The translations under genes were made by a program, and so were the position numbers. Shown piece by piece: positions 1,559 through 41,371 of a DNA stretch of 41,371 bases. Within the stretch, counting starts at the first letter, position 1. Each line of letters opens with the position of its first letter. Where the stretch lies: the IMG/VR virus record IMGVR_UViG_3300045988_116051, one strand, 5' to 3'. The notes beneath the pieces are model-generated. The model saw nothing but the letters and a program-made list of their open reading frames with translations, did no database searches and was not told the origin of the DNA. The stretch is from a virus.

Positions 1559-2624
1559 CGGTCAAAGTCACCTCCCCCAGCATCGGTGTCTCCCGGTCGC
1601 CCAGGGCTACGTTGGTCGTGCCGCCCGCAACAGTCAGGTTGCTGTGGTCCAATACGCCCTCGGTCGCGTTGATGCGGCTGGCGATCTGGGAGTAGGAGAC
1701 GTAGGTGCCGGTTTTCTCAAAGGCCAGGCCCCGCAGATACTCGGTCAGAGCGGCCTGCACTTTGGTTTTTACGGTCCCGATGCTGGCCCCGTCGGCTAGG
1801 GTGATTTTCGCCACCACGTCGATGTATTTCGCCGTCCCCGTGGTCACCGTGCAGACCGCCCCGATAGGCGCTTCCCCCACGCCGTCCCCGTTGTGGTTGG
1901 GGTCGATGAGGGTCTGCACCTGCTGGATGAGGGGAGTGCCTGCCGGTTCCTGGTTGGCGTCCAGGATGCAAACTTCCACCGTGTTCTTGCCCTGGGCCTG
2001 GGGGAAAATTTTCACCCGGCCCACCCCGGCGACAGAGGTCGCCCAGGCGATGTATGCCTGTTGGTTGGCCCCGTTGTTGGGGTTTTGCAGGTCGTCGTAG
2101 TAGCGCTCCCGAAGCTCGTCATCTGTCTCGCTGTCATAGCCACCGCTGGACGGCTCCGGGTTGGTCACCGCCGAAATGCCCGCGATGGTGATGGGCATGT
2201 AGGTGATCGTGTTGGCGTCCACGTTGCCGGTCTCCCCGGCGTTGTAGGCCCGCACAGTAAATTTGCTCCCGGCCTCCACGTCGCTGTCGGCAATGGCATA
2301 AAACTGCACGCCGCTCTCGGTGGAGAATAAATCGCCCGCCGAAATGCTGCCCGCCCCCGTGACCACCTGCATCTCTGCCGTGGCGTAGGTGGCGTATTTG
2401 CGGATAATCCCACGATGCTGTTTCACAAACTCATCCAGGGCCACCCCGGTGAGGTTGTCCACGTTCAGGTTTGCTTCCGCCGTGGCGATGTCATCGTCCA
2501 GGGACAGCACCGCCTGGGCAAAGGCCGCCGTGAAATCGTAGGCCGGAAACCCGGCTGTTTTCTGGTATCGGTCAGGGATGCGGGCCAGCATCTCCCGATG
2601 TACCGTGTCAAAATTAAGGGACAA
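1548..2624 (-). CDS. Baseplate J-like protein (XkdT analogue)
   Basis: 358 aa. Synteny, plus the NPEPSSGGYDSETDDELRERY motif typical of Baseplate_J. Confidence 0.75.
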   Translation of the reverse strand: MSLNFDTVHREMLARIPDRYQKTAGFPAYDFTAAFAQAVLSLDDDIATAEANLNVDNLTGVALDEFVKQHRGIIRKYATYATAEMQVVTGAGSISAGDLFSTESGVQFYAIADSDVEAGSKFTVRAYNAGETGNVDANTITYMPITIAGISAVTNPEPSSGGYDSETDDELRERYYDDLQNPNNGANQQAYIAWATSVAGVGRVKIFPQAQGKNTVEVCILDANQEPAGTPLIQQVQTLIDPNHNGDGVGEAPIGAVCTVTTGTAKYIDVVAKITLADGASIGTVKTKVQAALTEYLRGLAFEKTGTYVSYSQIASRINATEGVLDHSNLTVAGGTTNVALGDRETPMLGEVTLTVVS

Positions 2625-3042
2625 TCTGGATCACCTCCGTGATGCCGTCGTCGTTGTCTTCCAGGGTCAGGGTGCATTGGATCGTCTCACCGTCGTAGCG
2701 CATCTGTCCCACGTCCCGGATGCCTGGGTTGTAGGCGGCGGACTCTGCCAGATGGCGGCGCAACTCTGACAAATCGTAACCCTTCGGGGCCTTCTGGCCG
2801 ATCAAATCCTGCACGGGCGCTCCGAAATCCGCCGGGTAAATGGGAGAGCGCCCCTGCCGCGTGCGGACCACCAGCTGCACCCACTCTTTGATGGCCGCCA
2901 CACCGTAGACCAGGACGGGCGTCCCGTCCTGCATCCGGAGCCGCTGATTCTGCCAGTCGAACGCAAATCCCATCCCGATCTCCGTCTCCGGGCGGGTGGC
3001 AGTCATAGCCTCCTGCTCCTGGGCCACTGCATCGAATAACAT
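2614..3042 (-). CDS. Baseplate protein, XkdS / DUF2634-like
   Basis: 142 aa, sits immediately upstream of baseplate J. Confidence 0.55.
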   Translation of the reverse strand: MLFDAVAQEQEAMTATRPETEIGMGFAFDWQNQRLRMQDGTPVLVYGVAAIKEWVQLVVRTRQGRSPIYPADFGAPVQDLIGQKAPKGYDLSELRRHLAESAAYNPGIRDVGQMRYDGETIQCTLTLEDNDDGITEVIQIVP

Positions 3043-22562: not shown

Positions 22563-22582
22563 CGCGGGACACAAGGCCCGCG
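22563..22582. other. GC-rich inverted repeat (cgcggg/cccgcg, 8-nt loop) 17 nt downstream of the VR2 gene stop
   Basis: Read directly. The spacing relative to the stop is the same as for the VR1 hairpin (16 nt), and no U-tract follows. Confidence 0.5.
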
Positions 22583-22598: not shown

Positions 22599-23171
22599 TT
22601 AAATGTCGAAGCCGAAGCAAACACCGCGGCTGTGGCTGGCGTCGTTGTTGCCGCTGTTGCCGCCGTCGGTCACAGTGCAAAAGTACGCGGGGTCTTCCGC
22701 ATGCGGGGATGCCAACCAGTATGGAAATGGGACGCCGTTCAGCGTTTTAACCCGGTTTTCCTTCTCAGAGTAACGATGGAGTACTTCGCACAATTCTTCA
22801 TTCCCGTAGTTGTTTTTTCCAAAGACTTCCTTCTCTCGCAACAATCGGAGCGGCTCAGTTACAACTTCTTGCAAATCGTACGGCAACAAGCGGAAGAGCT
22901 TGCCCAGATATGCCTCCATCGTACTCAACTGCTCACCGTTTTTTGCTTTCCGGTTCTCATTCATGCAGTGAGTATCTTCGAGCAGGTTTTTCGTAAAAAA
23001 CGTTGCGCTCCTATGCCCTGCACGTTCGCAAACCAGCGTGACTTTTTCGCCGGTTTTTAGCTCGATGTCGATTTCGTCACCGATATTCAGTTGACTGGAA
23101 CCGGCATGGACAGCGTCCCTCAGCTCCGCCCATGTTGTTATCGTATCGGCGCATTTTCTGATTTTGATCAT
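22599..23171 (-). CDS. 190-aa stand-alone paralogue of the tail-fibre C-terminal domain, ending in a VR-like segment (VR2)
   Basis: C-terminus ...FPYWLASPHAEDPAYFCTVTDGGNSGNNDASHSRGVCFGFDI* parallels the fibre WYWLASP...YFCGVN...GVCFGLCV*. RBS GGAGG. Confidence 0.8.
   Translation of the reverse strand: MIKIRKCADTITTWAELRDAVHAGSSQLNIGDEIDIELKTGEKVTLVCERAGHRSATFFTKNLLEDTHCMNENRKAKNGEQLSTMEAYLGKLFRLLPYDLQEVVTEPLRLLREKEVFGKNNYGNEELCEVLHRYSEKENRVKTLNGVPFPYWLASPHAEDPAYFCTVTDGGNSGNNDASHSRGVCFGFDI
22612..22716 (-). repeat. VR2: second, diverged copy of the DGR repeat (105 nt, same length as TR)
   Basis: Codon-by-codon alignment to TR gives about 14 differences at TR adenines and about 8 at non-adenine positions. 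It shares GTTTGCTTCGGCTT with VR1. Confidence 0.7.
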
Positions 23172-38772: not shown

Positions 38773-38827
38773 GTTCTCACTCCTTTCTGCTTTTAGCAGG
38801 ATTCTAAACGCTAAATTAGCGAGTAGT

Positions 38828-39124
38828 TTACGCATAAACGATGTTAGCCATTTCCACGATGCACTCTTCGTGGAAGTCAGCTTGTGTAGAAAGAGCGGAT
38901 ACCTGCTCTTTCAGTAGCTTATTTTCCGCCCGAAGCGCCGCCATTTCATCCTCTTCCTCCGCAAAAAACTCTCCGATGGGGTAGGTTTTGTCCGTGGCCG
39001 GGGAATACACGGCGTTGTAATTCTCCCGTGTGGCGATCACGGCAACGCCGTTATCCTGTTGCAGGATGTAGCGCAGCGTTTCTGCGCGTTCGACGATTTC
39101 ACCATCTTTGTAAATTAAAAACAT
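38828..39124 (-). CDS. Hypothetical protein (tail-fibre/lysis junction)
   Basis: 98-aa ORF with a C-terminal coiled coil. Confidence 0.4.
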   Translation of the reverse strand: MFLIYKDGEIVERAETLRYILQQDNGVAVIATRENYNAVYSPATDKTYPIGEFFAEEEDEMAALRAENKLLKEQVSALSTQADFHEECIVEMANIVYA

Positions 39125-39125
39125 G

Positions 39126-39422
39126 TTATCCCTCCCGTAAAACCAGCATCGTTTGCTGGTTCGATGGATTTTTCTGGATGCTTACGGCGCTGGTGAATCC
39201 GTGGTATTCCAGCATGGGGCCGTCCCTCTGGTGGATACTGATACAGTCCGGTAAATGCAGAGCAGCTCGATCTACATCCTCGATGGGAGTATCCGCAAAT
39301 ACGATCCGCAGCTCATCGTCTGCTGCAATCACGTTGTCAACGGGGTAAATTTTTCCGCCGATATCCGCATACACTCCAAAAACACCCCTTTCATCGCTGT
39401 TTTTGTTCTCCAGGATTTGCAT
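39126..39422 (-). CDS. Hypothetical protein overlapping the RT 3' end
   Basis: ORF with an internal start at MQILENK. It overlaps the RT gene by about 94 nt. Confidence 0.35.
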   Translation of the reverse strand: MQILENKNSDERGVFGVYADIGGKIYPVDNVIAADDELRIVFADTPIEDVDRAALHLPDCISIHQRDGPMLEYHGFTSAVSIQKNPSNQQTMLVLREG

Positions 39423-40378
39423 TTCGATACATGGCCGCACCAGCTGACAAAACTGGTTCGCAAATCCTCCGGCGGGATTTTTCCAGCCAGCTTTTTCAGT
39501 TTTCTGCGTTGCCTGGTAACGTTTTTCCGGCTGATCCGCCGCACGACGCCTCCGGTTTCCGTGAGGCTGAATTTTTGCTTCAGCCAGGAGAAGCCGCGCC
39601 GAAGTGGGACGATTTGCGTTTTTGTTTCATTCATTTCCACGCCAAATGCTGCCGCTTCTTGTCGAATCACTTCCAGGCAGGCGAGCAAATGCTCTTTGTC
39701 GTGATGGATGATGTAGCCATCATCCATGTAGCGCCCATAGCATTTACAATGCATCCGCTCTTTGATCTTGTGATCGAGCCGATTCGGGACGGCTAGCGCC
39801 AAATTTTGGCTGATTTGGCTGCCAAGCCCCAGACCGACCGGCCCAAACATCCCGACCAGATGCAAAATCAGGTGTTTCAGCCGTTCATCGGCAATGTAGC
39901 GCTCCAAAATTTTTACAATAGCATCATGGCTAATACTGTCGAAAAATTTGTGGAAATCATAGATCAGGATGTATCCATCCCGCTCAAATTTGCGGTAAAA
40001 CTGGTGTAAGTGCGTTTCCAGGCGTCTGAGTGCGTAGTCAACGCCTTTTCCTTTCTGACTGGCCGAGTTATCAGGGATTAGCCTCGGTCCAAGAACGGGA
40101 GTGAGCAGATTATCGCACAAACAACGCTGCACCACGCGCTCCGTGATATGCACAGAGCGGATGTGCCGATGTTTTCCACGCTCAAAAATGTCAAACTCGA
40201 TAAATCCGTTGCTTTTCCATGCGCCACTCAGCAATTTGCGTTGAGCTATGCGCACATTGATAAATGCGTTCTCTTTGTAGGCCTGGGTCGAATGTTTCCA
40301 GCCTACGCCGCGCCTACATTTTTTATAGGCGGCATACAGGTTTCCAAAAGTGAATACGTCTCCAAACTGAATTTTCAA
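39329..40378 (-). CDS. DGR-type reverse transcriptase (TTG start in the ORF track)
   Basis: RT motifs are present: FFDSISH, LGLGSQISQNLA (the SQ motif typical of DGR RTs), and catalytic YMDD. It lies 140 nt downstream of TR. Confidence 0.9.
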   Translation of the reverse strand: MKIQFGDVFTFGNLYAAYKKCRRGVGWKHSTQAYKENAFINVRIAQRKLLSGAWKSNGFIEFDIFERGKHRHIRSVHITERVVQRCLCDNLLTPVLGPRLIPDNSASQKGKGVDYALRRLETHLHQFYRKFERDGYILIYDFHKFFDSISHDAIVKILERYIADERLKHLILHLVGMFGPVGLGLGSQISQNLALAVPNRLDHKIKERMHCKCYGRYMDDGYIIHHDKEHLLACLEVIRQEAAAFGVEMNETKTQIVPLRRGFSWLKQKFSLTETGGVVRRISRKNVTRQRRKLKKLAGKIPPEDLRTSFVSWCGHVSKCKSWRTKTAMKGVFLECMRISAEKFTPLTT

Positions 40379-40518
40379 AAGGGGGAACCTCGCTGGTAGC
40401 GGATTAGCTCGAAAGCGTCCGCGTCTCGGTGATATTTACCCATGTGGGAGGGTCAGGCGCTCCTTACGCGCGTGGACTGATTTCAGCAAACGCTTACTCT
40501 GTCTCCCTACCGCGCAAT

Positions 40519-40623
40519 CCGAAGCAAACGCCGTTGCTGTTGCTGGCGTTGTTGTTGTTGCTGCTGCCGTCGCTGTTCACATTGCAAAAGTTCGTGGAGT
40601 TGGACGCATTCGGGGACGCCAAC
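40519..40623 (-). repeat. DGR template repeat TR (105 nt, non-coding, AAC-rich on the coding strand)
   Basis: Coding-strand TR: TTGGCGTCCCCGAATGCGTCCAACTCCACGAACTTTTGCAATGTGAACAGCGACGGCAGCAGCAACAACAACAACGCCAGCAACAGCAACGGCGTTTGCTTCGG. It matches VR1 and VR2. Confidence 0.9.
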
Positions 40624-40668
40624 GCGCCCGCCTGCGACCGGCAGAATTTACAGTGCCTAACCCATAGC

Positions 40669-41070
40669 TCAAAACTTAAAACGTGCCTTGTCGGATTTTT
40701 TCGCCCCGGCGATCAGGCGGCCCTCATCGATCATCAAATCCGCCCAGTGCTCCAGGGCGTGCTCACTCAGGCCGTGTTGCAATTCCATCAAAACGCTGCA
40801 TTTTCCAATCAGGGCTTGCAAGCAGTTGTTCGCCTCGATCAGGTGGTCCCGCCGCATCTGCGCTTCGTGTTCATTCGTCGGGTAGATGCTGTTCGCCATT
40901 TTGCAGTGGTTGTGCACCTCGCTGGCCAAACGGCTCAGCTCCGTCCCAATAAAAAACGTGTAGCGTTTTGGCAGTTTCATGCAGCATTTCAGCGTGTGCA
41001 GTTCCAAATCGTAAGCGGTATCCAAAAATTTGATGCCGCTTTCCTTGCGCTGGCTTTTCAATACCGACAT
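40669..41070 (-). CDS. avd: Accessory variability determinant (Avd-like four-helix-bundle protein)
   Basis: 133-aa basic helical protein located between VR and TR, the canonical DGR position. Confidence 0.75.
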   Translation of the reverse strand: MSVLKSQRKESGIKFLDTAYDLELHTLKCCMKLPKRYTFFIGTELSRLASEVHNHCKMANSIYPTNEHEAQMRRDHLIEANNCLQALIGKCSVLMELQHGLSEHALEHWADLMIDEGRLIAGAKKSDKARFKF

Positions 41071-41085
41071 TCAGGGTCCTTTCCA

Positions 41086-41107
41086 TCCGCGCCAAAGGCG
41101 GCGCGGA
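41086..41107. other. GC-rich inverted repeat (8-bp stem tccgcgcc/ggcgcgga, 6-nt loop) 16 nt downstream of the target stop codon; cruciform/hairpin of the kind associated with DGR target recognition
   Basis: Base pairing read directly. The position between the VR1 gene stop and the avd start matches the arrangement described for the Bordetella phage BPP-1 DGR. Confidence 0.6.
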
Positions 41108-41122
41108 TTATTTGATTTTAGC

Positions 41123-41371
41123 TTAAACGCATAAGCCGAAGCAAACGCCGAAGCTGTCGCTGGCGGTGCTGCTGGCGCTGCTGCTGCCGTCGCTGTTCAC
41201 ACCGCAAAAGTACGCGGAGTTGGACGCATACGGGGACGCCAACCAGTACCACTGTGCAGAGCCGCCACCGTTGTTCATTTTTTTGATCCGGCTGGCATTG
41301 TCCGTAAAAATCGGGTACTGCCGCGCATTGCCCGTCGTGCGCTCCGTGGCCGGTGAGTAGCTCGATTCGCC
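41123..41371 (-). CDS. C-terminal end of the same tail-fibre gene (373 aa in the circular molecule), carrying VR1
   Basis: Same frame as 1..1014 once the 141-nt overlap is collapsed: ...WYWLASPYASNSAYFCGVNSDGSSSASSTASDSFGVCFGLCV*, stop TAA at 41125..41123. Confidence 0.85.
   Translation of the reverse strand, partial: GESSYSPATERTTGNARQYPIFTDNASRIKKMNNGGGSAQWYWLASPYASNSAYFCGVNSDGSSSASSTASDSFGVCFGLCV
41136..41243 (-). repeat. DGR variable region VR1 (108 nt)
   Basis: Aligns to TR 40519..40623. There are 13 substitutions, all at TR adenines on the coding strand, plus one extra AGC codon. Confidence 0.9.
41231..41371. repeat. Terminal direct repeat, copy B (identical to 1..141)
   Basis: Same 141-nt string as the window start. 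Confidence 0.95.

Follow-up and report, generated by a model that had tools for sequence, protein, structure and literature searches.

The 41,371-nt sequence of the IMG/VR virus record IMGVR_UViG_3300045988_116051 (here called the window, by which we mean the whole stretch of DNA that was analysed) holds a reverse transcriptase (RT) gene next to a set of imperfect repeats, and raises the question of whether these form a diversity-generating retroelement (DGR) that is still operating. A sequence-only reading had proposed a complete DGR, with a target gene ending in a variable repeat (VR), a hairpin, an avd gene, a template repeat (TR) and an RT gene, acting on the receptor-binding tail fibre of the phage. 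We conclude that the window very probably carries a complete and currently active DGR, with the layout known from phage BPP-1, in a human-gut myophage. The phage itself is an uncultivated human-gut myophage with a contractile tail. A candidate for every DGR component that can be tested from sequence is present, in the order target, hairpin, Avd, TR, spacer and RT, and the BPP-1 arrangement recognised in the earlier reading is thus borne out (Table 1).

When the TR region was compared with the window by BLAST, exactly two further copies were found, VR1 and VR2. In a proper alignment VR1 differs from TR by 13 substitutions, all of them at TR adenines (30 A in 108 nt; Fisher P = 5.8e-9), an outcome on which the sequence-only reading had staked its case beforehand. 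The placement of one gap decides whether 13 or 14 substitutions are counted, all being at adenines either way. This gap reflects a 3-nt insertion in VR1, located in an AGC/AAC triplet run that comprises 7 codons versus 6 in TR, (AGC)2(AAC)4. The repeats had been described as aligning end to end, which does not agree with the insertion, and the coordinates given at that time (105 versus 108 nt) already reveal a length gap. In the frame of the VR, 29 of the 30 TR adenines are in the first or second codon position (17, 12 and 1 in positions 1, 2 and 3, respectively). The homology ends three codons ahead of the stop of the 373-aa open reading frame (ORF) of the target, and the earlier statement that VR1 makes up the last 36 codons of this ORF is not exact, since the L-C-V codons and the stop come after it. 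The splitting of the ORF by the window junction was correctly identified, and translation of the circularised sequence, from 1014 to the stop at 41123, gives one ORF. Inside TR there is also a 42-aa ORF (40494-40622, minus strand), which the public annotations of relatives list as a gene. It is a frame-preserved TR copy of the target C-terminus, and probably not a real gene.

The variation among related contigs indicates whether TR is being copied into VR1. Two isogenic siblings of the window, L056 (ENA ERZ27272125, a 41,321-nt contig) and L059 (Logan SRR3992998), are 100% identical to it over 6.4 kb and 4.8 kb, save for 17 and 20 differences, respectively, all of which lie within 41151-41230, inside VR1. 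Another pair, L024 and L025, has identical RT genes, target bodies that are 99.8% identical, and different VR1 sequences, and among several relatives with a 100% identical TR the VR1 sequences all differ. In 26 related contigs, where each TR was compared with the VR1 of the same phage, 386 of 395 substitutions (98%) are at TR adenines and 9 are elsewhere. In addition, lineage-specific TR changes at bases other than adenine (non-A) are accompanied by the same base in the VR1 of the same phage in 22 of 23 cases, which indicates a transfer of information from TR to VR. Natural variation between assemblies, used in place of read-level polymorphism, speaks for a functioning DGR.

The RT fits the motifs of the DGR clade, as motif 4, [I/V/L]GxxxSQ, is present as LGSQISQ (39806-39826) and YxDD as YMDD (39719-39730), in agreement with the SQ and YMDD motifs reported earlier. 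It matches Pfam RVT_1 (1e-17) and phrog_1423 (6e-85), and its best match in the PDB is 8ub7_A (E 8e-24, nearly full length), which we confirmed by tblastn as BPP-1 Brt (100% identity). A group II intron RT reaches only 8e-7 and a retron-type RT 2e-4. Affinity to either group, which the earlier reading had named as a possible refutation, is not supported by these values, the best solved relative being Brt. The 349-aa protein has no maturase or endonuclease extension, and an Rfam scan of 38800-41371 at E<=1 revealed no group II intron or retron RNA. The best named NCBIfam match is the group II intron RT/maturase TIGR04416, with 76 bits and a cut-off of 300.

Avd matches phrog_3206, 'Avd protein of DGR' (E 1.3e-12), and 0 matches were obtained for it in a Pfam search. 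The spacer between TR and RT, which had been given as 140 nt, is slightly shorter (Table 1). The region 40340-40511 on the minus strand matches the Rfam family RT-2 (RF03077) with 34.5 bits (E 2e-6), where the gathering score is 40, and compared with the model it has an internal deletion. In distant relatives, including a Collinsella stercoris chromosome, the RT-2 matches reach 98-99 bits and begin a few nucleotides past TR. In the clade of the window the spacer contains one small hairpin with three compensatory base-pair changes. Weinberg et al. tied only RT-10 to a DGR, the other RT motifs being a matter of speculation (PMC5737381). RT-2 appears to serve a DGR lineage as the RNA of its TR-RT spacer, and the spacer of the window, judging from its sequence, probably works like RT-2 and derives from it, as a shortened variant.

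At the 3' boundary of the repeat the last 17 nt are invariant, apart from one fixed difference, with GGATT in TR and GGCTT in every VR, as had been noticed for the two VRs of the window. This A/C site is a synonymous third codon position, no other TR adenine being found in position 3. Every VR1 has C there, as do VR2 and the VRs of DGRs with an RT only 39-44% identical, where the TR/VR pairs are GGATT/GGCTT and GTGATT/GTGCTT. Because a mutagenised synonymous site would be polymorphic and this site is fixed, the A/C base most likely lies outside the copied segment. In BPP-1 cDNA synthesis begins inside the 3' end of TR, and the A/C boundary fits this behaviour. The initiation of mutagenic homing (IMH) site and its TR counterpart, IMH*, are operationally defined as imperfectly matching constant segments past the mutagenised region (Wu et al., PMC5758913), and by this definition GGCGTTTGCTTCGGCTT (VR) and GGCGTTTGCTTCGGATT (TR) qualify as a putative IMH/IMH* pair.

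VR1 and VR2 have common 3' flanks as far as the hairpin (TTTAAnCTAAAATCnAAnAATC), which TR does not have. The VR1 hairpin, located 24 nt past the end of the TR/VR1 homology, had been described as having 8 bp, and forms a stem of 9 Watson-Crick pairs, including 7 G-C pairs, and a possible G.T pair, closing the loop CCTT (dG of -14.7 kcal/mol for the 75-nt region). In 12 phages (the window and L023-L033) its stem is invariant and its loop variable, reading CCTT, CTTT or CCCT on the sense strand. The GC-rich inverted repeats of DGRs are found 4-34 bp downstream of VR, with a stem of 7-10 bp and a 4-nt GRNA loop, which is essential in BPP-1, where a CTTT substitution abolishes homing (PMC3240598). 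We also considered the hairpin as the terminator of the target gene, which it is not, since the coding strand has no T-tract.

The target protein contains DUF6273 (Pfam, residues 215-367, E 2e-11), which is a published DGR-target domain (PMC11792537). Its gene is the last of the baseplate operon, directly past those for a sheath initiator (2614-3042), Baseplate_J (1548-2624) and a Mu-Gp48-like protein (1016-1558), and in relatives where the gene is not split the public gene calls include DUF6273 proteins of 372-374 aa in the same position. The AlphaFold model of the full target, obtained with a 28-sequence alignment, has a mean predicted local distance difference test score (pLDDT) of 67, and is confident only at approximately residues 80-190. 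It includes a beta-sandwich at approximately residues 80-146, for which Foldseek retrieved only generic Ig-like beta-sandwiches from the PDB, and PDB sequences searched with a profile of the target gave no match.

Two different tail modules precede the same DGR cassette, whose Avd protein is identical in both settings (L057, L058, L061 and L066 versus L056 and L060). One is formed by Baseplate_J, the Mu-Gp48-like protein and a target of 372-374 aa, and the other by proteins of 726 and 171 aa and a target of 382-384 aa with different first ~60 residues. The N-terminal ~60 residues of the target swap together with the upstream tail genes, while the C-terminal body is the same. This is as expected of an attachment domain and supports the tail-fibre assignment. 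Of the earlier proposal that a receptor-binding tail fibre is diversified, the diversification by a DGR stands, whereas the term tail fibre follows from gene position only. The target, from its sequence and genomic context, is a plausible tail fibre or receptor-binding protein.

Table 1 Features of the DGR and of its second, small target in the window (coordinates of the RT-2 matches in distant DGRs are those of the respective contigs)
Feature	Coordinates	Strand	Basis or remark
Target gene, 5' part, 338 codons	1..1014	-	Start at 1014, continues over circular junction
Target gene, 3' part	41123..41371	-	Stop codon 41123-41125; 41231-41371 is the duplicated overlap
VR1, 111 nt (TR plus one codon)	41133..41243	-	TR homology
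IMH-like invariant 3' end of VR1, GGCGTTTGCTTCGGCTT	41133..41149	-	Past last mutated adenine
GC-rich inverted repeat (hairpin or cruciform)	41085..41108	.	Folding
avd (accessory variability determinant), 133 aa	40669..41070	-	phrog_3206 match
TR, 108 nt, 30 adenines	40516..40623	-	Repeat alignment
IMH*-like 3' end of TR, GGCGTTTGCTTCGGATT	40516-40532	-	Alignment with VRs
TR-RT spacer, 137 nt, conserved structured RNA region	40379..40515	-	Similar to Rfam RT-2
DGR reverse transcriptase, 349 aa, TTG start	39329..40378	-	RVT_1, phrog_1423 and Brt matches
Small second target-like gene, 190 aa	22599..23171	-	Paralogue of main target C-terminal half
VR2, degenerate repeat, apparently frozen	22609..22716	-	TR homology
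VR2 6-bp GC hairpin	22563-22582		Distance equivalent to VR1 hairpin
RT-2 matches in distant DGRs	L034 2179-2426, L035 2200-2421, L037 2195-2416, L043 2695-2916

The second copy of the repeat, VR2, behaves differently. The small target gene that contains it is part of the replication/early module and lies just upstream of the gene for a dCTP deaminase, and its product is 29% identical to the C-terminal half of the main target (BLASTP, E 4e-20); its AlphaFold model is poor (pLDDT 58). The sequence-only reading had set VR2 alongside VR1. The two indeed share the GGCTT end, but they are not equivalent, because VR2 has 8 non-A mismatches to TR besides the 15 at A (adenine enrichment P = 2e-5). VR2 is nucleotide-identical in 16 other contigs, comprising 6 IMG/VR relatives and 10 contigs from different samples, with mosaic neighbourhoods, and the phages with an identical VR2 include ones whose VR1 sequences all differ. 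In 4 phages with both loci known, VR2 differs from the resident TR by 4-14 non-A mismatches and does not track it. The variant TRs of relatives were also tried as the source of VR2, and matched it no better than the window TR (7-14 non-A mismatches). Across more distant relatives VR2 does vary, preferentially at TR-A columns. VR2 was probably once a DGR target, which the element of this clade has ceased to rewrite; alternatively, strong purifying selection may act on a site that is occasionally rewritten.

The identical 190-aa small target is found in L046-L055 within mosaic early regions, having upstream either ERF/HNH/SSB/DUF6291 or DnaB/RusA. These differing neighbours indicate that replication modules are exchanged around the conserved small-target gene.

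The insertion in VR1 of the window is part of a wider length variation. TR has 108 nt in every relative examined, and VR1 has 105, 108, 111 or 114 nt. The indels of VR1 are found only in the AGC/AAC triplet run, all other VR1 differences being at adenines. A VR1 with one codon less, or with one or two codons more, is present in the window (run at 41166-41186) and in L026, L027, L031, L032, L038, L065, L066, L069, L070 and L071. Among 112 homologous targets, 82 have the loop of 15 aa that TR encodes, 19 have one of 16 aa, 9 one of 17 aa and 2 one of 14 aa, with ~27% of the homologues off the modal length. The additional codon of the window is absent from both isogenic siblings (L056 and L059), which indicates that it is recent. 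The same +3 is observed at the (AAC)4 run of a DGR with 44% RT identity, in one of two siblings.

In-frame indels beside AAC repeats have been reported in ~7% of DGRs, for which template slippage by the RT was proposed (Wu et al. 2018, PMC5758913; also PMC12875486). As both the indels and slippage are already described, the length variation observed here is a supporting detail and not a new phenomenon. It resembles the non-canonical DGR mutagenesis of Wu et al. 2018 in that VR and TR differ in length by multiples of 3, the difference being located inside an AGC/AAC run. It differs in being observed at population scale in a single DGR lineage, with -1, 0, +1 or +2 codons and a constant TR, and in that one instance arose between otherwise identical genomes.

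The first 141 nt of the window are an exact copy of its last 141 nt (1-141 = 41231-41371), and when this overlap is collapsed the genome size is 41,230 nt. The maximum k-mer of MEGAHIT is 141, the same length as the overlap, and the latter is therefore most likely due to a circular assembly path, rather than to a physical terminal repeat. A sibling contig carries the name k141_... Relatives of the phage are numerous in public collections, and all of them come from human-gut metagenomes, while a megablast search of the INPHARED set (GenBank phage records) with the cassette/window gave 0 matches. In the search for a host, an exact TR 60-mer had 0 matches in representative bacterial genomes, and a scan of the representative bacterial genomes with RT peptides retrieved only Collinsella/Coriobacteriaceae DGRs at 39% identity, which did not identify the host. 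One relative, with a 92%-identical target, is found inside a 1.36-Mb contig (L068, ENA ERZ28752778 contig_3118), adjoining the gene of an SLH-domain protein, which suggests that some members at least are integrated prophages. The contigs bearing the exact Avd or small target of the window are all <50 kb.

By analogy with BPP-1, the avd-TR-spacer region would be transcribed, and a complex of RT and Avd would bind the structured spacer RNA and reverse-transcribe TR from just upstream of its GGATT end, with misincorporation opposite template adenines. The cDNA would then take the place of VR1, to which it would be guided by the invariant IMH-like 3' segment and, if the hairpin acts as its BPP-1 counterpart, also by this downstream GC-rich element. 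Up to 29 first- or second-position adenines could be recoded in this way, in a predicted surface loop region at the C-terminus of the DUF6273 protein. This protein would occupy the place of the tail fibre or receptor-binding protein in a Mu/P2-like baseplate, and may bind the receptor. Occasional triplet slippage on (AGC)2(AAC)4 would alter the length of the loop, as may have happened with the +1 codon of the window VR1, and VR2, in the small early-region paralogue, would be a former target that the element of this clade no longer rewrites.

Several observations weigh against this interpretation. The evidence for activity is comparative, coming from differences between assemblies, and there are a few non-A differences between TR and VR1 (9/395). 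The stem of the hairpin and its distance to VR1 fit the published description, but the loop does not fit GRNA. Avd was identified from the PHROG profile and its position only, as the NCBIfam model DivGenRetAVD matches with E 0.004 (17 bits versus a cut-off of 80) and BLASTP against BPP-1 Avd was not significant. Regarding the target, the VR region of the AlphaFold model has a pLDDT <50, too low to show a C-type-lectin fold, hhalign against Mtd was negative, and the tail-fibre role rests on gene order. One could ask if the element is a fossil, which has kept a historical adenine signature and no longer operates in this phage. VR2 shows that targets of this family can decay, and several DGR-bearing Faecalibacterium prophages were reported to show no read-level variation in culture (PMC11792537). 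Nevertheless, we consider a fossil very unlikely, given that assemblies from other samples match the window over kilobases with their 17-20 differences confined to VR1, that both ORFs, RT and Avd, are intact, with the RT motifs preserved, and that non-A TR changes are copied to the VR1 of the same phage.

The repeats might also be ordinary paralogous 3'-end duplications, shaped by normal mutation and recombination, with the RT belonging to another retroelement (a group II intron, a retron or a defence RT). The scattered non-A differences of VR2 and the best named NCBIfam match, of 76 bits to a group II intron RT/maturase, would be in line with this, but that score is far under the cut-off of 300, the protein lacks the maturase/endonuclease extension, the match to Brt is much stronger than those to group II or retron RTs, and Rfam revealed neither of the corresponding RNAs (38800-41371, E<=1). 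Together with substitutions that are 98% adenine-specific, this effectively refutes the duplication hypothesis, whose probability we regard as negligible. A different possibility accepts an active DGR and takes the 373-aa target as another virion protein or a secreted binding protein, such as an adhesin for mucus or non-host surfaces. Among characterised tail fibres none matches the target in sequence or structure, its one weak PHROG match is to a Hoc-like head decoration protein (E 1.4e-4), its small paralogue is encoded in a non-structural module, and the role of DUF6273 targets is left open in the literature (PMC11792537, PMC10743442). This possibility seems rather unlikely to us, as the gene is the last of the baseplate operon, past Baseplate_J and Mu-Gp48-like, which is the place of the fibre gene in Mu/P2-type tails, and the N-terminal module swaps together with the upstream tail genes in relatives.

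An active DGR of the BPP-1 layout, acting on a probable tail fibre, can be compared with the systems already known. The gene order in BPP-1 (mtd/VR, avd, TR, spacer, brt) is the same as in the window, and the sizes are close, with 133 versus 128 aa for Avd, 137 versus 144 nt for the spacer, 349 versus 328 aa for the RT and 373 versus 381 aa for the target (window versus BPP-1). The position and size of BPP-1 bbp7 match those of Avd, and in the nearly full-length alignment of the RTs IGSLTSQ of Brt stands over LGSQISQ of the window, with YMDD kept. Both systems have a GC-rich inverted repeat past VR and adenine-specific mutagenesis. In contrast, the target of the window has DUF6273 and no detectable similarity to Mtd, TR has 108 nt versus 134 nt in BPP-1, and the IMH-like segment has 17 nt with one fixed A/C difference, whereas that of BPP-1 has 34 bp with a (GC)14 run. 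Furthermore, the hairpin loop deviates from GRNA, the Rfam family that the spacer resembles is RT-2 and not RT-10 (PMC5737381), and the phage, whose host is a gut bacterium, is a contractile-tailed myovirus.

The Faecalibacterium (pro)phages Lelie and CP11 (PMC11792537) are similar in other respects, as they have a single DGR with two VRs, in a large and a small target, both targets being DUF6273 proteins with a C-terminal VR. They are also from the human gut, and show adenine-specific variation across cognate IMG/VR genomes. In CP11, judging from the repeat coordinates, TR and VR are ~1.8 kb apart, versus 0.5 kb in the window, and both VRs vary in CP11 relatives, whereas VR2 is frozen in the close clade of the window. 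The possibility that the window is the published prophage CP11 itself was examined by comparison with the published coordinates, and this difference in repeat spacing rules it out.

Cassettes of this kind are already well known in gut phages, and the one described here reveals no new mechanism; gut Firmicutes phages in which the DGR has large and small DUF6273 targets have also been published (PMC11792537). We suggest, tentatively and at somewhat less than even chances, that the lineage may routinely diversify the length of its loop by RT slippage, with a constant 108-nt TR containing (AGC)2(AAC)4 and changes of -1 to +2 codons in about a quarter of the natural variants, and that it has decommissioned a non-structural VR2, now frozen across many phage backgrounds. 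If this is true, DGR diversity would have a second, programmed axis in the variation of length, and the retirement of a target would be an observable evolutionary state. The present results provide population-level support for two effects that had already been proposed, namely that triplets slip at AAC runs and that a secondary target can lose its activity. They also add a well-documented, naturally active DGR from an uncultivated human-gut myophage, and the unusually clean comparative evidence, with genomes that are identical except in the variable repeat, makes it a good candidate for the study of receptor switching in gut Firmicutes phages.

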